This document shows, in pieces, positions 2,375 through 10,958 of a stretch of 12,865 nt of DNA (positions are counted from its first letter, which is position 1; every line of letters begins with the position of its first letter). The position numbers and the translations under genes are program-made. This DNA is from Clostridia bacterium. Lineage in GTDB: Bacteria > Bacillota > Clostridia > Christensenellales > Aristaeellaceae. Under the pieces are notes generated by a model that did no database searches, had not been told where the DNA came from, and saw nothing but the letters and a program-made list of their open reading frames with translations. Location: assembly GCA_045599485.1 (NCBI GenBank), contig JAZRWA010000075.1:1-12865 (forward strand), written 5' to 3'.

Positions 2375-2472
2375 GGTTTCTTCCTCCTTGTTTTTCCACC
2401 GCGGAGACGTAAATTTTGCTGCCACCCTGTACGGGCACAAGCGGCTTGTCTTCCGCGTGCGTTATCTGTGGT

Positions 2473-2501
2473 ATTGTATCACATCAAGGTGCACTTTGCA
2501 A
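2473..2501 (-). promoter_or_regulatory. Candidate sigma-A promoter for rpsB-tsf
   Basis: On the minus strand, TTGCAA (2496-2501) is followed by a 17-nt spacer and TGaTACAAT, an extended -10 with its hexamer at 2473-2478. This leaves a leader of about 90 nt before the rpsB RBS. This is a motif match only. Confidence 0.45.
2480..2490 (+). repeat. Left copy of the 11-bp direct repeat CACATCAAGGT that brackets the TAG-interrupted locus
   Basis: An exact 11-mer recurs in the same orientation at 7453-7463. AATATT plus a T-run follows both copies, directly on the right and after 9 extra nt on the left. Confidence 0.5.
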
Positions 2502-2632
2502 TATTTTTTTGTTTCTTTCTCAACTGAATTACCAAAAAACTTTTGCTCAATTGCTTTATCGGATTGCGTCGTAATTGGATGCTTCATACCGTTATCCCCC
2601 TCCGTTCTGTATTCCAAACATTTTACAGTTTT

Positions 2633-2662
2633 TTGACTATTGTTCTGTTATCATGTTATAAT
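2633..2662 (+). promoter_or_regulatory. Near-consensus sigma-A promoter for the 2697 gene
   Basis: TTGACT (2633-2638) is followed by an 18-nt spacer and TGtTATAAT, with the extended -10 TG at 2654-2655 and TATAAT at 2657-2662. A GAGGAGG RBS follows at 2679-2685, 11 nt before the ATG at 2697. Confidence 0.6.
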
Positions 2663-2696
2663 ATTACACATTCCATTCGAGGAGGCCCATACATAA

Positions 2697-3203
2697 ATGC
2701 TTAAAAAGTATGTTTCATTGCTGATGGCGTTCATCTTCCTGACCACGGTTCTGCCGCTGTCTGTTGGTATGCCTGTGGCCAAGGCCAAGAGTTTGGATGA
2801 GGAATTGACAGACTACGCATTGATGGCATTTCAGGAGATTTCAGCGACTTTTGGAAAAACAAATCCCGATGATGTAGCTTTCCGCAGGCTGATGAAACGT
2901 TTGTATTCGGATAAGAATCAGACCGGTGAAGCCAATATGCAGGATCATCCGATCTGGAATACCATCGTCGAATGGGTCACGAATATGACAGATTACCGTG
3001 GCTTTTTGGGGATCAATCCGGAGCAGCAATATGCTGAGATCCTGCTGTATACGGAGCTGTTGCAGGACATGCTGAAGGCAGGCAACGAAAGTTTTGAAGG
3101 CGCCGTGAAGCTTGCTGAAAATGAAACCAAAGTGGGGGGCAAGTGGAAAGCAACGATCGGTGCAGTGTGGAATAGTGTATCCGCATATTCCTCCACAACC
3201 TAG
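2697..3203 (+). CDS. Segment 1 of the TAG-interrupted frame: a 168-aa secreted protein under standard decoding
   Basis: This is the only segment with a real translation start (promoter, GAGGAGG RBS, ATG). It has a Sec signal peptide, MLKKYVSLLMAFIFLTTVLPLSVGMPVAKA|KS, with an AxA cleavage site. It ends at TAG 3201. Confidence 0.85.
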   Translation: MLKKYVSLLMAFIFLTTVLPLSVGMPVAKAKSLDEELTDYALMAFQEISATFGKTNPDDVAFRRLMKRLYSDKNQTGEANMQDHPIWNTIVEWVTNMTDYRGFLGINPEQQYAEILLYTELLQDMLKAGNESFEGAVKLAENETKVGGKWKATIGAVWNSVSAYSSTT

Positions 3204-6200
3204 CTGATTCGTAGCTCCCTCTTAAGGCGCATTCTAACCAGCCCCGACATGCTCATCAACGTTCAAGACGTAGGCAGTCTGTTCGGTCATGGCAATCCGG
3301 GTGTCGGTGATTATCTGAAGGGAACCGGATATTTTCAGTACACGGTCTCGTCTATTGATCTGCTGGAGAAAATCAGTGAATCTGCAGAAGACGAAAGCCT
3401 GCGTCTGGCTTGCGATGCAATGTTGTATGTATATAAAAACTGGCGGTCAGAAGTGCTGAAGGATAAGGATATATTCAGCGGCAGGTATGCAGACGATCGG
3501 GTGTATCAGGAAGAAATGGACGAATATGTCCGTACAGAATTGAATCACTATCTCAAGAAAAAATACGGAAAATAGAATGAAAAGGATATGTGGAATTGGG
3601 TAGAGACAAGCCAGCCAGCAATCTCTATAATGCAAAGATCGGGCGCAGGTTTGAGTAACGTAACCTTTAACATGAAAGGTATCTTTGTCAGCTTTGAAAA
3701 GATGCGCTGCACCGAAAATATTGCACAGGCTATGACCGGTATATTGGCCGATCAGATGAACGCATCCGGCAAAACATGGCGCGACTACATGTCCTGGGTA
3801 AACCTGTATATGCAATACCTCAAGCTGTGCCTGATTGGCGAATCCGCGCTGCATGAGCTGGTAACCGTGAATTCATGGATTCCGGTCGATTTCCTGTTCA
3901 AAAAAGGCGACACGGCCGACTTTGAAGCTTGGTATACGCAGGATAAGAATCTGCTTGAAATGTTTTATACAGATTCGCAGTACTATCTCCAATATGTGCT
4001 GGAGAAATATTACGTAATGATCAGTATGACGGATGATTTTGAAGCGTTGCTGGAACGGGAAGACCTGCATCAACGAACGATCCGAGGCGTGGTGCTGCAA
4101 GACGAATTCTACGCAGATCCGGATGATACGACCAAGCCGGGCCTGAACGCCGCCAACGAGTACGCCGGGGAACCAGCAGTCGGCGTTTCCGTAAGACTGG
4201 TAGGCAAAAATGACGATCGCGAATATGCCGCCACGGTGACCGGTGAGGACGGCAGCTATGAGCTGACTTATGTTGAGGAAGCGGCTGTCGGTGAACCACT
4301 GAAACTGGTGATCGCCGAGAATTGCGAATACGGTCTGTTTGCAGAAAACGAGACGGACGTGTGGCGGGATGTAGAGCTGGAATTCCGCAGCGAATGGAAT
4401 TCGCAGGCAACAAGGACTACCAACTTTTCCACCGAAACCAATCTGTCCTGGACATTTGATTACTGCGATCAGCTCTTCCTGCAGCCGGAGGATCAATACA
4501 ATCATGATCTGGCACGCTTGTCACTGGGCATGGCGGTAGCAGGCTATTCTGCGCCTGAGGCAGACCGCTACTGGAATTCTGATGGCGATATGGGCCGCGA
4601 AAGCAATATCCGTGCAGCCTATGAAAAGCTTGGCTTTATCGATTCGCCTTATCCAACCAGATTCGTCCATTATGATAAAAATTTGAACGACGACAGTTCC
4701 AAGGTGGCTTTCTCCATTGCCGCAAAGGATATTTTCAATCCCGAAATATCTATCAAAGAGGACGAGGCGCAAAAGGAGCACCTCGTGGTGGTGGTCCTTC
4801 GCGGCGGCGGCTACGGATGCGAATGGTCCAACAATTTCTATGTGAAGCAAGCTGATGTGCAGAACTATCATGCCGGCTTCTATTTTGCAGCCAGTGAGGT
4901 GGCAAAATAGGTGGAGGAATATATCAGCTCCACATTTGATGACGGACGCCCCGTTCGCCTGTGGATGACAGGCTACAGCCGTTCTGCAGCCACCTGCACA
5001 CTGGCAGCTGAATTGCTGGATGCCATGACGAACAAGCCATATGAGCATCTGTATGCATACACCTTTGCAGCACCCGCAGGCACACAGCAGCCTAAGGCAA
5101 TCAAAGGCCTGTATAACATCATTTATGGTGAGGATCTTGTGCCGCGCGTAGCACTTGAAGCATGGGGCTTTGGTCGAAATGGAACCAGCCTGTTCTTTAC
5201 AACCAACTCCACAAAGCTGAAAGAAGAAGATGCTTCAAAAATTCAGAATATTTTCCAAAAGATCACCCGTTATTCCGGTGCAGGCTACAACCCGCTGGAT
5301 TATACGGCAGAGAGTGACCTGATCACATAGATCGTGGGATTGCTACAAAAATCAGCGCCGGATGTGGATACCTATGCTGAAAAAATGCAGCCTGCTTTGG
5401 TGGCGATCGCGAAAATGTACTTCTCAAAGCGCCACGAGCCGGATGGTCGCAACACGACGGATTTTGATTATATCGATGAAATGATGACCGGCGTGATCGA
5501 GGAGCAGAATCCCAACTACCGTGCCCAAGTAACAGAAGCTGAGAATCTTCTGAAGTAGTGGGTCAACCAGACAAACGCCATCAAGTCGCTCACGCAGATC
5601 ATCAGCGGGCTGGCTCCGCGCACAGCGGGTGCTTTGCCCTTCACTCTGCTCATAACTCTGGGTAGCAAACTGGTGGAGTGGGAACAATCAGGTGAACAAT
5701 TTTTATGGAATCTGCTGCACAAGGCAGAAGACTTCGTTTCCGCCTTGTGCCATATTGAAAACTACGGAAACATCGTGCGAGAGAAGTCCCAGTTGAAGTC
5801 GTCTGCCGATTCAAGCAATATGAGTTCAGCTGAAACGAATGAGTATCTGACCATGATAAAGATACTCGGCTTTTTGATTGCCAATGCGTCCGGCGTCGCG
5901 CAGCGCGCAATCGGCGGCACAGGTACGACCGGCATCATGATGGGTCACAGACCCGAGGTATACCTTTCCTGGCTGTATGCACTCAGCGGCGAAGAACTGT
6001 TCGGGCGCGAGGATGCAATGTCTGTCGACCTGCGTGTACGCCCGATCAAGCGACACTTCACCGGTGTCGTGCTGGCAGAATATGCGAAGGGTGATTACGG
6101 TCGCATAACAGCATATCTCCTGGATAACAGCATGCATTTACGCCTTGATAACGATGGCAACCTGATTACAGTGGAACGTTTTGATTGGACGGGCTATTAC

Positions 6201-7196
6201 TCCCCCTGGAACTGGTATCTGCGAATGATCCTGCTCGATGACAGGTATCTGTACTCTGAATACCGCGTGGTGGATGGCGCTGACTTCCTCTATTACGAAA
6301 TACAGTATCAACTCTACGATCTGTTGGGCAATGTACCTCTCCTCTTCTCGGCCAAAACCGATGAAAACGGTATACTTGTCCTGACCGACAATAAGTTTGA
6401 AACACACATGGCACCGGTTGAGATCGGCAAGGTTGGATCCACTCTTAACGTAGAGCTAATGACTTAGACACTCAATAGCATGTTTGGTCGCTACGGCCTG
6501 GATTTCCAGCTTCAAACGACTGCCAGTCCATCCTACTATGTAAACCACGTAGAAAAGACCCATTACGCAGATATCCCCATCGGCGTCATCAAGGATAACA
6601 GCCGTGACAGGATGATCTTTGATATCGACACCACCGATTAGAGGAACTTCAGTTACACGGATTTTCTGGCTTATGAAGAAGTGATGGAAAAGTACTATCG
6701 TCCCAGGAAGATCGTTACCGAAAGCGATCCAGCGGCTCTGGTATAGAAGGTGTTGGAAAGCACCGGCGCAAACTTCACGCTCAACTCCTCCAGCGAATAC
6801 AACGGCACGATCACCGAAACCTACAATGACGAAAATGGAGTGCAGCTGAAGTTCAGTATTGACAAGGCCTCCGGCCGAATCATCAAGATCGTACTGGACG
6901 ATTCCGCCCTATGCAACAGCGACTGGAGAAACCGTTCAATGGCGATTAAAAACTATACCATGGAGCTTTATGACCGTATGATGCAAATAACCGAACTGGG
7001 GCTGGATGAAGCACTAAGTTTGGAGCTGCGTTCAATCGATTTTGAGAGCGCAAAGGTAAAAAAGAACGCGTTCGACCTGAATGAGCGTACGCTGTCCTAT
7101 GAAACACAGGGAATACAGGTGACAATGTCCAAGGAGACCATGCTTCCGAGTGAAAACATCCTGAGCCTGCTCACGATCACTTTCCCCGCTCCCTGA
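2697..7196 (+). CDS. Single 1,499-codon reading frame with 8 in-frame TAG codons, encoding a secreted class-3-lipase-like protein. It is either translated with TAG read-through/reassignment or is a TAG-only pseudogene.
   Basis: ORFs 2697, 3249, 3588, 4911, 5334, 5634 and 6750 all start at coordinates divisible by 3. I read every gap codon by codon. The only interruptions are TAG at 3201, 3573, 4908, 5328, 5556, 6465, 6639 and 6744 (codons 169, 293, 738, 878, 954, 1257, 1315, 1350). The frame ends at TGA 7194-7196. No other + strand frame in this span yields an ORF in the track. The lipase-like domain spans the TAG at 4908. Confidence 0.65.
3249..3575 (+). CDS. Segment 2 of the TAG-interrupted frame (track ORF, 108 aa)
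   Basis: It is in frame with segment 1, and the 15 codons from 3204 to 3248 are also open. No Shine-Dalgarno sequence precedes ATG 3249. The confidence refers to this interval being coding in this frame, not to it being an independent gene. Confidence 0.55.
   Translation: MLINVQDVGSLFGHGNPGVGDYLKGTGYFQYTVSSIDLLEKISESAEDESLRLACDAMLYVYKNWRSEVLKDKDIFSGRYADDRVYQEEMDEYVRTELNHYLKKKYGK
3588..4910 (+). CDS. Segment 3 of the TAG-interrupted frame (440 aa): beta-sandwich-like region plus the N-terminal half of the lipase_3-like domain
   Basis: It is in frame, with only 4 sense codons after TAG 3573. IRGVVLQDE…GVSVRLVGKNDDREYAATVTGEDGSYELTYV resembles carboxypeptidase-regulatory/Cna-B-type beta-sandwich repeats. 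HLVVVVLRGGG and HAGFYFAASEVAK match the lipase_3 'vvaFRGT' and 'vHkGF…' blocks. The segment ends at TAG 4908. Confidence 0.7.
   Translation: MWNWVETSQPAISIMQRSGAGLSNVTFNMKGIFVSFEKMRCTENIAQAMTGILADQMNASGKTWRDYMSWVNLYMQYLKLCLIGESALHELVTVNSWIPVDFLFKKGDTADFEAWYTQDKNLLEMFYTDSQYYLQYVLEKYYVMISMTDDFEALLEREDLHQRTIRGVVLQDEFYADPDDTTKPGLNAANEYAGEPAVGVSVRLVGKNDDREYAATVTGEDGSYELTYVEEAAVGEPLKLVIAENCEYGLFAENETDVWRDVELEFRSEWNSQATRTTNFSTETNLSWTFDYCDQLFLQPEDQYNHDLARLSLGMAVAGYSAPEADRYWNSDGDMGRESNIRAAYEKLGFIDSPYPTRFVHYDKNLNDDSSKVAFSIAAKDIFNPEISIKEDEAQKEHLVVVVLRGGGYGCEWSNNFYVKQADVQNYHAGFYFAASEVAK
4911..5330 (+). CDS. Segment 4 of the TAG-interrupted frame (139 aa): nucleophile-elbow half of the lipase_3-like domain
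   Basis: It begins at the codon immediately after TAG 4908. VRLWMTGYSRSAATCTLAAELL resembles 'i.vTGHSLGGAlA.l.a', with the Ser codon at 4977-4979. YAYTFAAPAG resembles 'ytFG.PrvG', and IIYGEDLVPRV resembles 'rvv…D.VPrlP', with the Asp codon at 5133-5135. A GAGGTGG lies 8 nt upstream of GTG 4911, so reinitiation is conceivable. Confidence 0.7.
   Translation: MEEYISSTFDDGRPVRLWMTGYSRSAATCTLAAELLDAMTNKPYEHLYAYTFAAPAGTQQPKAIKGLYNIIYGEDLVPRVALEAWGFGRNGTSLFFTTNSTKLKEEDASKIQNIFQKITRYSGAGYNPLDYTAESDLIT
5334..5558 (+). CDS. Segment 5 of the TAG-interrupted frame (74 aa)
   Basis: It is in frame, with one sense codon (ATC) after TAG 5328, and no RBS. It ends at TAG 5556. Confidence 0.5.
   Translation: MGLLQKSAPDVDTYAEKMQPALVAIAKMYFSKRHEPDGRNTTDFDYIDEMMTGVIEEQNPNYRAQVTEAENLLK
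5634..6467 (+). CDS. Segment 6 of the TAG-interrupted frame (track ORF 277 aa; open from 5559)
   Basis: It is in frame, and the 25 codons from 5559 to 5633 are open. The track start is a TTG with no RBS. It contains MMGHRPEVYLSWLY, a possible lipase 'H…Y' catalytic-His block with the His codon at 5946-5948. It ends at TAG 6465. Confidence 0.6.
   Translation: MPFTLLITLGSKLVEWEQSGEQFLWNLLHKAEDFVSALCHIENYGNIVREKSQLKSSADSSNMSSAETNEYLTMIKILGFLIANASGVAQRAIGGTGTTGIMMGHRPEVYLSWLYALSGEELFGREDAMSVDLRVRPIKRHFTGVVLAEYAKGDYGRITAYLLDNSMHLRLDNDGNLITVERFDWTGYYSPWNWYLRMILLDDRYLYSEYRVVDGADFLYYEIQYQLYDLLGNVPLLFSAKTDENGILVLTDNKFETHMAPVEIGKVGSTLNVELMT
6750..7196 (+). CDS. Segment 9 of the TAG-interrupted frame (148 aa), the C-terminal region ending at the real TGA stop
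   Basis: It is in frame. The preceding 6468-6749 is also open except for TAG 6639 and TAG 6744, giving segments 7 and 8 of 57 and 34 codons. There is no convincing RBS before GTG 6750. Confidence 0.55.
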   Translation: MLESTGANFTLNSSSEYNGTITETYNDENGVQLKFSIDKASGRIIKIVLDDSALCNSDWRNRSMAIKNYTMELYDRMMQITELGLDEALSLELRSIDFESAKVKKNAFDLNERTLSYETQGIQVTMSKETMLPSENILSLLTITFPAP

Positions 7197-7334
7197 TTAC
7201 AATGCTGCTGTCTTTATTGCTCTTTCCGGTCAACTCACCCGCAAATGGGCCAATATATCCCTTCAAAATTAAATGCTCCATTGTTTGATCTTCCTCCATT
7301 TACTTCCAGAGATAATACTGTATTGTTTTCTTAT

Positions 7335-7368
7335 ACTGTGCCGGTGACTCATATTTCGACTGTGCCGG
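7335..7368 (+). repeat. 10-bp direct repeat ACTGTGCCGG x2 in an AT-rich spacer
   Basis: The copies lie at 7335-7344 and 7359-7368, 24 bp start to start, inside a stretch of about 310 nt (7197-7510) with no convincing ORF. Confidence 0.5.
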
Positions 7369-7452
7369 ATTGTTTATCAACAATGTCTTCAACGCCTTGG
7401 ATTGCATAACCAGCATATTAGCTCGTCACCATGTCACGCGATTTTATCCTCA

Positions 7453-7463
7453 CACATCAAGGT
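7453..7463 (+). repeat. Right copy of the 11-bp direct repeat CACATCAAGGT
   Basis: It is an exact match to 2480-2490 in the same orientation. Confidence 0.5.
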
Positions 7464-7510
7464 AATATTCGTTTTCAAACAAGAAAACAAGAGAAATACA
7501 GTACATACTA

Positions 7511-7539
7511 TTGACAACTGTATAAATAAGGTCTATGCT
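7511..7539 (+). promoter_or_regulatory. Candidate sigma-A promoter of the trp operon
   Basis: TTGACA (7511-7516) is followed by a 17-nt spacer and TATGCT (7534-7539), directly upstream of the T-box leader. Confidence 0.6.
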
Positions 7540-7545
7540 TTCATC

Positions 7546-7834
7546 AGATAAACCGTTGAAGCGGAAGTAAAGGTGATTGTTGCTCCTACAGAGAACCTGC
7601 GGTGGTGGAATGCAGGCGGAAAGCAGGTCATCACAATGGACCGCTGAGGGTGCGGTGAAAGACTGGCATCAGTCGATTATCCCGCGACGCGCAGGACTGC
7701 GTCAGTGTCCGGAGGTATGTTTGTACCTTGCCAAGTGTGCAGCAAGCGCTGCAAACCAGGGTGGCACCGCGGATCTGTTGTTGATTCGTCCCTGGTAAGG
7801 TTCATTATCGAGCCTTACCGGGGACTTTTTGTTT
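7546..7834 (+). promoter_or_regulatory. T-box riboswitch leader, tRNA-Trp specific (UGG specifier)
   Basis: A conserved T-box sequence, AAACCAGGGTGGCACCGCGG, lies at 7753-7772. A stem-I AGAGA element lies at about 7590. The stem-I base AGCGG (7560-7564) pairs with CCGCT (7641-7645), with UGG-A (7637-7640) immediately 5' of the closing helix, the position expected for a specifier codon plus purine. A terminator follows, and then trp biosynthesis genes. Confidence 0.85.
7790..7834 (+). terminator. T-box terminator hairpin
   Basis: CCCTGGTAAGG (7790-7800) pairs with CCTTACCGGGG (7813-7823), giving 11 bp including one G-U pair. ACTTTTTGTTT follows. It lies 10 nt upstream of the trpE RBS. Confidence 0.8.
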
Positions 7835-7856
7835 ATCAAGTGCAGGAGGAATGACA

Positions 7857-9317
7857 ATGCAGCTGTATCCGAGTCTTGAAACTGCGAATCGATACGCCAA
7901 GGAAGGCTATCGCATGATGCCCCTGTGTACTGAACTGCTCAGCGATGTGCGTACCCCGATGCAGGTACTGCGTGCGCTGAAAAATGTATCCAGCCATGTC
8001 TATCTGCTGGAATCCGTCGCCGGTCATGAACAGTGGGGCCGCTACACCTTCCTGGGCTATGAGCCCACCATGGAGATCACCTGTATGAACGGCACGCTGC
8101 GCATGGGCAGCCTGACCCTCGAGACCCGTGACCCCAATCATTATATCCGTCAGATCCTGGCCGATCACCACAGCCCCAGGATCGAAGGGCTGCCAAGCTT
8201 CACCGGCGGTCTGGTCGGTTATTTCAGCTATGATTATCTGAAATATGCCGAGCCTACCCTCCGTCTGGACGCAGAGGACAGCGAGCATTTTCAGGACATG
8301 GATCTGATGCTGTTTGACAAGGTGATCTGCTTTGATCACTACAAACAAAAGATCATCCTGATGGTCAATATTGCTCTGGATAAGCTGGAAACAGAATATA
8401 ACCGGGCCGCCATGGTATTGAGCCAGATGGCCGAACTGGTGATGAACGGCGCACTCAAGCAGGAAAAGCCCGGCCGTCTCAAAAGTGCCATCCGTCCCCT
8501 GTTTACGCAGGAAGCCTTCTGCAGCATGGTGGAAAAGGCCCAATATCACATCCATGAAGGAGACATTTTCCAGATTGTGCTGAGCAACCGCCTCGAAGCC
8601 GATTATGAAGGCAGTCTGCTCAATGCCTACCGCATCATGCGAACGAAGAATCCCTCACCATATATGTTCTATTTCAGCGGCACGGATGTCGAGGTCGCTG
8701 GCGCTTCGCCCGAAACACTGGTGAAGCTGGAAAACGGTGTACTGCACACCTTCCCGCTGGCAGGTACCCGTCCGCGCGGCAAGACGCCGGAAGAAGACAA
8801 GGCGCTCGAAGAAGATCTTCTGGCTGACCCCAAGGAACTGGCCGAGCACAACATGCTGGTGGATCTGGGCCGCAACGACATCGGCAAGATCAGTCGTTTC
8901 GGTACAGTGGAAGTGGAAAAATACCACTGTATTGAGCGTTTCTCCCACGTCATGCACATCGGCAGCACGGTGCGCGGCGATATCCGTGAGGATTGTGACG
9001 CACTGGATGCGGTGGATGCGATCCTGCCAGCCGGCACATTGTCGGGTGCGCCAAAGATCCGTGCCTGCCAACTGATCAACGACCTGGAAAACAACAAGCG
9101 CGGCATCTACGGCGGCGCGATCGGTTATCTGGACTTTACGGGAAACCTGGATACCTGCATTGCCATCCGCATCGCCTACAAAAAGAACAGCAAGGTGTTT
9201 GTCCGCTCCGGTGCCGGCATCGTGGCGGACTCGGTACCCGAAAAAGAATATACCGAATGCACCAACAAAGCCGCCGCAGTCATCAAATCGCTGGAAGAAG
9301 CGCAGGAGGTGGAATAA
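7857..9317 (+). CDS. trpE: Anthranilate synthase component I
   Basis: The sequence has a TrpE/chorismate-binding family signature throughout (…LESV…GRYTFLG…, …PSPYMFYF…, …GAIGYLDFTGNLDTCIAIR…). AGGAGG at 7844-7849 favours ATG 7857 (7-nt spacing) over the track start at 7851 (1-nt spacing). The stop is TAA. Confidence 0.93.
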   Translation: MQLYPSLETANRYAKEGYRMMPLCTELLSDVRTPMQVLRALKNVSSHVYLLESVAGHEQWGRYTFLGYEPTMEITCMNGTLRMGSLTLETRDPNHYIRQILADHHSPRIEGLPSFTGGLVGYFSYDYLKYAEPTLRLDAEDSEHFQDMDLMLFDKVICFDHYKQKIILMVNIALDKLETEYNRAAMVLSQMAELVMNGALKQEKPGRLKSAIRPLFTQEAFCSMVEKAQYHIHEGDIFQIVLSNRLEADYEGSLLNAYRIMRTKNPSPYMFYFSGTDVEVAGASPETLVKLENGVLHTFPLAGTRPRGKTPEEDKALEEDLLADPKELAEHNMLVDLGRNDIGKISRFGTVEVEKYHCIERFSHVMHIGSTVRGDIREDCDALDAVDAILPAGTLSGAPKIRACQLINDLENNKRGIYGGAIGYLDFTGNLDTCIAIRIAYKKNSKVFVRSGAGIVADSVPEKEYTECTNKAAAVIKSLEEAQEVE

Positions 9318-9932: not shown

Positions 9933-10958
9933 ATGATCCGCGAAGCCATTATCAAGCTGACCGAAAAAGGGGACCTGAGCTACGATGAAGCCTATGCCGT
10001 GATGAATGAGATCATGAACGGTGACACGACCCCGACACAGAATGCCGCCTTCCTGGCCGCGCTATCCACCAAGAGTACAAGAGCGGAAACCATTGAGGAG
10101 ATCTCCGGCTGCGCGTCGGCCATGCGCGCCCACGCCCTGTCCGTGGATGTAGGTGACATGGAAGTGCTGGAGATCGTGGGAACCGGCGGTGACGGCGCTC
10201 ACAGCTTCAACATTTCCACCACCTCCGCCATGGTGATCGCGGCCGGCGGTGTCAAGGTCGCAAAGCACGGCAACCGTGCTGCCTCCTCCAAATCCGGCAC
10301 GGCCGACTGTTTGGAAGCACTGGGTGTCAACATCAGTCTGACCCCCGAGCAGTGTGTGGCTCTGCTGGAAAAGGCAGGCTTCTGCTTCTTCTTTGCACAG
10401 AAGTATCATGCATCCATGAAGTATGTCGGAGCGATCCGCAAAGAGCTGGGATTCCGTACGGTATTCAATATTCTGGGACCGCTCACCAACCCCGCCCGTC
10501 CGCAGATGCAGTTGCTGGGCGTTTATGACGAATATTTGCTGGAACCGCTTGCGCAGGTTCTTTGCTCCCTCGGCGTTCAGCGCGGCATGGTCGTCTACGG
10601 CATGGATAAGCTGGACGAGATCTCCATGAGTGCGCCGACCAAGGTCTGTGAGTTCAGGGATGGATGGTACAAAACCTACACCATCACACCCGAAGACTTC
10701 GGCTTTGCCCGCTGCGACAAGAGTCAGCTGGTTGGCGGCACGCCCGAAGAGAACGCACAGATCACCCGCGATATACTGTCCGGCAAAGAGCAGGGACCGA
10801 AGCGCAGCACCGTGCTGATGAACGCTGGCGCCGCTCTGTACATTGCAGATAAGGCCGATACGCTGGCAGCAGGTGTCAAACTGGCGGCCGAACTGATCGA
10901 CAGCGGCAAGGCCCTTGCCACCCTGGAAGAAGTCATCAAATGCTCCAATGAGGTGTAA
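9933..10958 (+). CDS. trpD: Anthranilate phosphoribosyltransferase
   Basis: GTGGDG…FNISTT…[12 protein letters not shown](T)AD motifs are present. The protein is 341 aa, has an AGGAGG RBS and stops at TAA. Confidence 0.95.

Follow-up and report, generated by a model that had tools for sequence, protein, structure and literature searches.

A Clostridia lipase-family gene whose in-frame TAG codons appear to be read as sense

Positions 1–12,865 of contig JAZRWA010000075.1 (NCBI GenBank assembly GCA_045599485.1, from a Clostridia bacterium placed in the Aristaeellaceae), hereafter the window, carry on the forward strand a 4.5-kb gene of 1,499 codons, eight of which are TAG. The entire frame is under purifying selection. 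As judged from its orthologues, the frame is protected against TAA, TGA and frameshifts yet not against TAG, which seems to behave there as a sense codon. On this comparative evidence TAG is almost certainly translated in the gene lineage, and it is very likely translated in the cells that carry the window. The first-pass annotation of the window had proposed one gene with decoding or read-through of its TAG codons, as opposed to an operon of small genes, and the orthologues and substitution rates described below support that proposal.

A reading frame interrupted by TAG alone

Translation and a codon scan of 2697–7196 gave eight in-frame TAG codons, no TAA and no TGA over the 1,499 codons that precede a TGA at 7194, in agreement with the first-pass annotation, which had listed one frame with TAG at these same positions. 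The other five frames of the window contain hundreds of TGA and TAA codons, so the openness of this frame to TGA and TAA is real. Codon-position guanine-plus-cytosine (GC) contents of about 0.52, 0.37 and 0.58 are alike across all nine TAG-delimited segments. The earlier estimate that eight stops out of eight would be TAG by chance with probability (1/3)^8 proved too small. Counting the gene's own codons that lie one step from a stop, 266 of 565 (about 47%) yield TAG, which gives a chance of about 0.47^8 = 0.0024, or 0.006 with transitions only.

An exhaustive HMMER search (query residues 301–1499, X at the TAG sites, E ≤ 1e-3) returned high-identity fragment proteins that led to a second contig, L081 (ENA ERZ27247129, 10,287 bp). 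It holds an orthologue 87.5% identical to the window gene in nucleotides and 88% identical in amino acids, with a frame of 1,504 codons, nine in-frame TAGs, no TAA or TGA inside, and a TAA terminator. Only one indel separates the two copies in 4.5 kb, and it is in frame (5 codons). Five TAG columns are common to both (codons 293, 738, 954, 1315 and 1350), and these shared positions would predate the split of the two lineages. Three columns are private to the window, where L081 has CAG, GAG and GAG, and four are private to L081, where the window has GAA, GAA, AAA and AAG.

Two further sequences show the same pattern. The fragments L120 (SRR14246009, 95.8% identity to L081) and L119 (SRR21150839, 99% identity) both keep the frame and contain no stop in it but TAG. 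L120 carries a new TAG at a column that is CAG in the remaining three sequences, and it has GGG opposite one TAG of L081. An independent Logan assembly, L121, is 100% identical to L081. The window, L081, L120 and L119 together contain 13 TAG columns, with Gln (2), Glu (4), Lys (2) and Gly (1) codons as partners; codons for Tyr, Trp, Leu or Ser, or TAA or TGA, never stand opposite TAG in these 13 columns of the four sequences. Mixed TAA, TGA and frameshift lesions in orthologues, which the first-pass annotation had named as the pattern that would speak against it, were looked for, and L081, L120 and L119 were found in frame and interrupted by TAG only. The frame and its codons are as follows.

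2697–7196, + strand: coding sequence, 1,499 codons plus TGA, with eight TAG codons predicted to be sense; secreted multidomain protein of the class-3 lipase family
3201–3203, + strand: TAG codon 169, window-specific; CAG (Gln) in L081
3573–3575, + strand: TAG codon 293, common to the window and L081
4908–4910, + strand: TAG codon 738, common to the window, L081 and L120; inside the lipase core, between two helices, before the nucleophile strand
5328–5330, + strand: TAG codon 878, window-specific; GAG in L081, Glu in L120 and L119
5556–5558, + strand: TAG codon 954, common to the window, L081, L120 and L119
6465–6467, + strand: TAG codon 1257, window-specific; GAG in L081, Glu in L120
6639–6641, + strand: TAG codon 1315, common to the window, L081 and L120
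6744–6746, + strand: TAG codon 1350, common to the window, L081 and L120
7194–7196, + strand: true terminator TGA; the L081 orthologue terminates with TAA
2648–7207, + strand: block of DNA homology between the window and L081 (87.5% identity), comprising the gene, about 50 bp upstream and 11 bp downstream; flanks unrelated

Substitution rates show that selection acts along the whole frame. The Nei–Gojobori ratio of non-synonymous to synonymous substitution rates (dN/dS) between the window and L081 is 0.136 (dS 0.445, dN 0.061), and none of the 13 segments bounded by TAG columns exceeds 0.47. Downstream of codon 169, where the first-pass annotation had said that a ratio of about 1 would count against translation, we obtained 0.142 (bootstrap 95% confidence interval 0.114–0.175). 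Between L120 and L081 the ratio is 0.148 at a dS of 0.127. The 224 codons that lie between a TAG and the next ATG retain 89% protein identity, with 29 synonymous and 25 non-synonymous codon changes. When the 541 observed substitutions were placed at random in a neutral simulation, a mean of 5.5 TAA and 3.5 TGA codons arose, and none of 2,000 runs was free of stops. TAG codons themselves are conserved between the window and L081 at 0.59, vs. 0.68 for all codons.

The surroundings of the TAG codons offer no local signal. The bases that follow them (C, A, G, A, T, A, A and A) and the residues that precede them (T, K, K, T, K, T, D and V) are as first reported, and the accompanying remark that the sites share no sequence context or downstream hairpin was borne out: no common context was found around them, and a search of the 80 nt after each TAG gave no stable hairpin (minimum free energy z-scores –1.7 to +1.3). 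Five of the six downstream ORFs had been described as lacking a usable Shine–Dalgarno sequence, and none was seen together with a start codon after any TAG; the next ATG lies up to 87 codons away.

The start of the gene carries a full set of expression signals. It begins with ATG at 2697, the –10 region of its promoter falls inside the block conserved with L081, and its N-terminus is conserved there. The promoter, ribosome-binding site, ATG and signal peptide ascribed to the first segment were thus all recovered, the signal peptide by eye.

2633–2662, + strand: sigma-70-type promoter, TTGACT-18 nt-TATAAT with TG before the –10 box; 11 of 12 matches, the best promoter-like site in 2400–7900
2679–2685, + strand: Shine–Dalgarno sequence GAGGAGG, 11 nt before the ATG; the L081 equivalent is GGGGAGG
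2697–2786, + strand: predicted Sec signal peptide MLKKYVSLLMAFIFLTTVLPLSVGMPVAKA, then K; cleavage site inferred by eye from the translation

The predicted lipase-family product and its relatives

The predicted product is a secreted protein of about 1,500 residues that comprises an N-terminal helical region, a transthyretin-like beta domain (a weak Pfam match at residues 491–546), a class-3 lipase alpha/beta-hydrolase with a helical extension, and a C-terminal region. The elements of the putative active site are the following.

4788–5156, + strand: Pfam Lipase_3 (PF01764), residues 698–820; E 2.4e-09, 37.7 bits vs. a cut-off of 22; interrupted by TAG 738
4800–4817, + strand: RGGGYG motif, residues 702–707, before TAG 738; R124, G125, Y128 and G129 (A2/A3) nearly invariant in 40 homologues
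4977–4979, + strand: Ser761 in GYSRS, predicted nucleophile, in segment 739–877; invariant in 40 homologues (S183 of A2/A3)
5133–5135, + strand: Asp813 in GEDLVP, predicted catalytic acid, in segment 739–877; invariant in 40 homologues (D235 of A2/A3)
5946–5948, + strand: His1084 in GHRPEVYLSW, predicted catalytic histidine, in segment 955–1256; at least 90% conserved in 40 homologues (H506 of A2/A3)

The RGGGYG motif would form the oxyanion-hole region, and the nucleophile motif, G-Y-S-R-S, differs from G-x-S-x-G. The motif and the residues Ser761, Asp813 and His1084 are distributed over three TAG-delimited segments, His1084 lying two TAGs downstream of Ser761 and Asp813. Since they stand in separate segments, an active enzyme would need read-through of TAG 738, TAG 878 and TAG 954.

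An AlphaFold2 model of residues 579–1106, computed with X at the TAG sites, forms a single confident fold (predicted template modelling score 0.83, mean predicted local distance difference test score (pLDDT) 80.5). A short break that separates two helices ahead of the nucleophile strand contains TAG 738, with a pLDDT of 98 on both sides, and TAG 878 and TAG 954 also lie between helices. Ser761 follows beta strand E175–182 of the model. Foldseek matched the model with probability 1.00 to M37 lipase, feruloyl esterase A and Rhizomucor lipase (E about 1e-5), with a template modelling score normalised to the target of only 0.39–0.48. Weaker Foldseek matches of the same model (nt 4431–6014) are the plant immune proteins EDS1 and PAD4, which likewise join a lipase-like domain to a C-terminal helical domain. 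The family's catalytic His comes after a long, poorly predicted helical insert (model residues 381–497).

The HMMER search gave 2,886 relatives, and these include uninterrupted proteins of the same architecture: P0001 (1,672 aa, 42% identity) aligns in one stretch over query residues 25–815, and P0004 (1,311 aa, from an Aristaeellaceae metagenome-assembled genome (MAG)), P0008 and P0009 are further cases. No stop was found at the TAG columns in 144 homologues or in 29 loci examined. The homologues sit in ordinary bacterial contexts and make up a large family of bacterial surface or secreted proteins. A query with the N-terminal 292 aa matched only the window's own contig and L081. A profile scan of metagenomes returned distant lipase-domain relatives only, at most 43% identical in the best matched segment and all uninterrupted, and none of 80 trpE loci of Clostridia MAGs (GTDB representatives, TrpE ≤75% identity) had a homologue of the protein. 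With 75% as its best TrpE identity in that set, the window has no species match there and would come from an unsampled bacterium of Clostridia type.

Public databases hold the gene and its orthologues as eight separate proteins (P0002, P0003, P0006, P0010, P0035, P0065, P0151 and P0152), some of which bear artificial Met starts at a GTG or TTG directly after a TAG. Such deposited fragments imply that genes of this kind are hidden in catalogues by standard-code gene calling.

The inserted residue and the source of the decoder

Between the window and L081, the partner residues of TAG are Glu (4), Lys (2) and Gln (1), and the log10 likelihood of the encoded residue is –5.1 for Glu, –5.2 for Lys and –7.7 for Gln, with all others far lower; the later L120 data added one further CAG-to-TAG exchange. 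These exchanges suggest that a polar, long-chained residue is inserted, probably Glu, Gln or Lys, as against Tyr, Trp, Leu or Ser. The counts are small and tilt a little towards Glu or Lys; what is established about amber suppressors, and about genetic code 15, in which TAG stands for Gln, favours Gln a priori. Of the candidates first put forward, Gln, Trp and Tyr, we keep Gln; Trp and Tyr are disfavoured, as TAG exchanges only with Gln, Glu and Lys codons and once with a Gly codon.

The gene lies between rpsB and a T-box–trpE operon, so that its flanks are chromosomal core genes: pyrH, tsf and rpsB on the – strand, and a T-box leader followed by trpE, G, D, C, F and B on the + strand. No repeats or mobility genes were found at the borders of the homology block. 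Neither the 12.9-kb nor the 10.3-kb contig contained a phage gene, an integrase or an att-like repeat, and no pyl genes were seen in either. Searches of IMG/VR, phage DNA and plasmid DNA gave no relatives, PADLOC gave no match, and PHROGs gave a generic esterase family only. Three "Bacteriophage sp." tblastn matches were considered as phage relatives and rejected: they are unverified standard-code contigs with uninterrupted lipase-domain homologues of 27–32% identity.

In L081 the orthologue is followed by a gene for a polytopic membrane protein (8116–9291, + strand), which apparently continues through TAGs at 8902, 9040 and 9268 to a TGA-TAA. Past the first TAG, no other frame of the six scores higher for coding than this one, and the P for a run that stays open over such a length is about 0.009. 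No homologues of this protein were found, and read-through there rests on ORF (open reading frame) length and coding score. If that read-through is real, TAG decoding extends beyond one gene family. The three TAG-bearing genes contain 8 in-frame TAGs in 1,499 codons, 9 in 1,504 and 3 in 391.

To finish the protein a ribosome has to pass eight successive sites, and at 50% read-through per site 0.4% of ribosomes would do so. The efficiency at each site would thus be high, which points to a dedicated UAG-reading tRNA and to weak or absent competition from release factor 1 (RF1). We propose that UAG may be decoded by a tRNA encoded in trans, with a CUA anticodon or its equivalent, and that RF1 would compete with it weakly if at all. 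The host lineage would keep TAG out of its core genes and tolerate it in a few low-GC accessory genes, and the supply of the UAG-reading tRNA would gate the translation of these genes. The chromosomal setting, the gene's own sigma-70 promoter, the lack of phage genes and viral relatives, and the membrane-protein gene of L081 favour a decoder at the level of the host. A host-encoded amber decoder that gates a few accessory genes is therefore the explanation we prefer, at somewhat short of an even chance. The wider statement, that a gut-type Clostridia lineage has freed UAG from its stop function and inserts canonical Glu, Gln or Lys through a host tRNA in a small accessory set only, is a little more tentative still.

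Several observations weigh against a host decoder. The gene block has a GC content of about 0.48 vs. 0.55–0.58 in the window flanks, and in both genomes the TAG genes (0.47–0.49) are lower than the core flanks (0.55–0.61), with adjoining intergenic DNA at 0.33–0.42 (window 2450–7500 vs. flanks; L081 2914–10287 vs. 1–2913). The gene neighbourhoods of the two genomes are unrelated. Low GC and differing contexts fit an imported-DNA signature and are also compatible with a phage-type source. In-frame TAG is found in 0 of 2,358 flanking core codons of the window and in 0 of 969 upstream codons of L081; at the gene's own density about 12.6 would be expected in the former (Poisson P about 3e-6), so the codon is not used uniformly. 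ARAGORN found no tRNA in the window, L081 or related loci, hence no decoder there. At the TAG columns the distant homologues vary strongly or have gaps, and column 738 is most often Glu (28 of 144). Known bacterial stop reassignments are all UGA and the 2026 screen cited below lists no bacterial TAG case, so the prior for a host amber code is low. The terminators of the flanks carry no information either way: 0 of 10 flanking genes end in TAG, but related Clostridia use it for just 11–12% of stops (P about 0.28).

Part of this evidence would also suit a decoder of viral origin. A TAG-recoding (code 15) phage or prophage alone might supply the suppressor tRNA-CUA, and maybe counter RF1, so that full-length protein would be made in the late phase only. 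The gene would then be silent in uninfected cells, either as phage-derived chromosomal cargo or as a host gene that senses the code switch. TAG-recoded phages and prophages do infect gut Firmicutes, which themselves keep the standard code (10.1101/2021.08.26.457843). The lower GC of the TAG genes relative to their flanks, their differing contexts in the two genomes and the core genes without in-frame TAG all suit such a source, and efficient read-through would be more readily imagined during infection. Against it, neither contig has a phage gene, integrase, att-like repeat or tRNA, the two copies cease to be homologous at most 50 bp outside the gene, and neither IMG/VR nor the GenBank phages yielded a relative, bar the 27–32% lipase-domain matches on unverified contigs. 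The protein belongs to a large family of bacterial surface or secreted proteins and has no PADLOC match, and TAG exchanges with Glu and Lys codons oftener than with Gln, which code 15 predicts, although the numbers are small. We consider a phage-supplied decoder unlikely, yet the most serious competitor, and the same holds for the silence in uninfected cells that it entails. A variant in which host genes are built for translation only when a code-15 phage switches the cell's code would be almost as novel as a host decoder.

The host decoder has also to be set against recent import. Here both genomes would have received the gene from a donor in which TAG is sense; it would now be untranslated past the first TAG, and the selection signal would stem from the donor lineages. 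Lower GC, differing contexts and a homology limited to the gene itself suit this account, and nothing in the contigs shows that the hosts decode TAG. It would need, however, at least two independent and very recent imports of a bare gene with its promoter, without decay, to explain four sequences from four samples. The dN/dS of 0.148 between the close L081 and L120 (dS 0.127) still shows constraint, and no donor-like sequence appeared in any collection searched. We judge it improbable.

Less probable again, and in our view quite improbable, is that TAG encodes pyrrolysine (Pyl), with a host that carries pylTSBCD and inserts Pyl at eight sites. In its favour, Lys codons stand opposite TAG at two columns and Pyl derives from lysine; it is also the only natural amber decoding known in bacteria. 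Pyl-encoding archaea are reported to keep an ambiguous amber usage (PMC12626013). However, the 8–9 TAGs per gene occupy variable, loop-like positions, vs. the single conserved active-site residues of methylamine methyltransferases. They turn over between close relatives and exchange with Glu oftener than with Lys, and neither contig has a pyl gene.

The TAG-only orthologues, the dN/dS values and the missing TAA and TGA codons effectively exclude a pseudogene, a small-ORF operon and an artefact, which even taken together are highly unlikely. For a decaying pseudogene with nonsense mutations that are all TAG by chance, C-to-T or G-to-T changes at CAG, GAG and AAG can yield TAG, and the 8/8 chance of about 0.002–0.006 is small but finite; it is made extremely unlikely by a dN/dS of 0.136 overall, by five TAGs common across a dS of 0.45, by about 9 TAA or TGA codons expected and 0 seen, and by a single in-frame indel in 4.5 kb, with the same pattern in four sequences. 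Standard gene callers split the region into seven to nine small genes, as in an operon whose members would each end at a TAG and restart after it, and databases contain the pieces in that form, yet this reading can be practically dismissed, given no Shine–Dalgarno sequence before the restarts, a next ATG up to 87 codons away, intervening codons that are 89% conserved, break positions that differ between orthologues, breaks that cut one lipase fold and separate its catalytic residues, and homologues that are single uninterrupted proteins. An artefact of sequencing, assembly or binning, such as a chimera or systematic miscalls, might be suspected in a short MAG contig with GC shifts at the gene borders, and is just as negligible, as the pattern recurs in independent samples and assemblers (ENA k141, Logan, NCBI MAG) with shared and private TAG positions, and the TAGs have no common sequence context.

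Related decoding systems and the surrounding genes

The closest known system is that of the code 15 phages, whose phage genome and element-encoded suppressor tRNA have no counterpart in the two contigs and whose Gln correspondence is seen at 2 columns, against Glu at 4, Lys at 2 and Gly at 1. TAG-recoded phages and prophages infect gut Firmicutes including an Oscillospiraceae species, have lower GC than their hosts, and concentrate their TAGs in late and lysis genes (10.1101/2021.08.26.457843). Like their genes (crAss-like and Lak phages, the "Topaz" and "Garnet" prophages), the present gene has many in-frame TAGs, uninterrupted homologues and a lower GC than standard-code host DNA, and would depend on a suppressor tRNA acting in trans. 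Both also share an ecosystem and a host group, gut-type Clostridia, where one Oscillospiraceae species has a recoded prophage (10.1101/2021.08.26.457843). The present gene differs in lacking any phage context and in standing alone under a promoter of its own, flanked by rpsB and the trp operon, with no suppressor tRNA nearby, no viral relatives, and partners that are mostly Glu and Lys codons.

To our knowledge, pyrrolysine is the only amber decoding on bacterial chromosomes. Its sites are single conserved catalytic positions in methylamine methyltransferases. Pyl decoding in Acetohalobium, Desulfitobacterium and Bilophila resembles the present case in being chromosomal amber decoding through a dedicated tRNA-CUA, whose expression can be conditional; the 8–9 variable, surface-like sites of a secreted lipase-family protein set the present gene apart.

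In Streptomyces, the rare TTA codon and the bldA tRNA-Leu(UAA) gate accessory genes. The logic that we propose may be similar, in that core genes lack the codon, accessory genes have it, and one dedicated tRNA would control translation; TTA, however, is a standard sense codon, whereas UAG is a stop and its decoder here is predicted only. Laboratory amber suppression is represented by supE and supF strains and the RF1-free E. coli C321.deltaA. When RF1 is missing, suppressor or near-cognate tRNAs take over at UAG and are reported to insert Gln, Tyr, Lys and other residues (PMC6207430). Such strains show that bacteria tolerate UAG read-through, but they are engineered or mutant, whereas the TAGs described here are kept in nature under purifying selection across a dS of 0.45.

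Reassignment of UGA, in code 4 (Mycoplasmatales and some endosymbionts) and code 25 (Absconditabacteria, Gracilibacteria), likewise turns a chromosomal stop into sense, with the matching release factor presumably lost or weakened. It concerns UGA and RF2 and is genome-wide, including core genes (PMC8629427), whereas the codon here is UAG, which implies RF1, and accessory genes alone contain it. The bacterial stop reassignments that the Codetta screen of 2021 knew of are without exception of UGA (PMC8629427), and a 2026 k-mer screen of about 2.7 million assemblies lists no TAG case in bacteria (10.64898/2026.04.02.715157). Both screens rely on conserved genes, to which they would owe a blindness to any codon confined to accessory genes, and standard annotation splits such genes.

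We know of no description of non-pyrrolysine TAG decoding of bacterial chromosomal genes. The TAGs here stand in a chromosomal, non-phage gene, are kept across species-level divergence (dS 0.45), and come and go as sense codons do. Each of the four leading explanations (host decoder, phage decoder, recent import, pyrrolysine) would be unusual, and the host-decoder and phage-decoder readings would be new. A host-encoded decoder, if true, would constitute a new bacterial genetic-code variant and a natural stop-codon-gated translation, and, if not Pyl, the first case on a bacterial chromosome of amber reassignment or programmed amber suppression without pyrrolysine. A phage-supplied decoder, if true, would make this the first host-resident gene dependent on a phage's code switch. 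The lineage should hold a natural, efficient amber-decoding system, which would be of interest for genetic-code expansion.

Downstream of the gene, a short ORF on the – strand (window 7200–7420) encodes MLVMQSKALKTLLINNPAQSKYESPAQYKKTIQYYLWK. Its end motif, judged by eye, recalls the C-terminus of IS3-type transposases, and we take it that the ORF may be a mobile-element remnant. In L081, a low-GC accessory region at the contig end contains the start of a Fic/DOC-like protein (9974–10285, + strand; motif ...TEASNAIEGI...), with no in-frame TAG in its 104 available codons.

Rfam found nothing in the window at the gathering threshold. Below it, a T-box leader (RF00230) was matched at 7547–7796 on the + strand with 82.4 bits (E 2.7e-18; gathering score 93). 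A promoter-like site precedes it at 7511–7539, and its 3′ end overlaps a terminator hairpin at 7788–7825 just upstream of trpE. The leader is presumably Trp-specific and controls the trp operon. The listed TTG start of the trpC ORF overlaps the end of trpD by 44 nt (window 10915–10958), and a later ATG (MATILDT...) is the likelier start. The trp genes are tightly packed, trpC and trpF overlapping by 4 nt.

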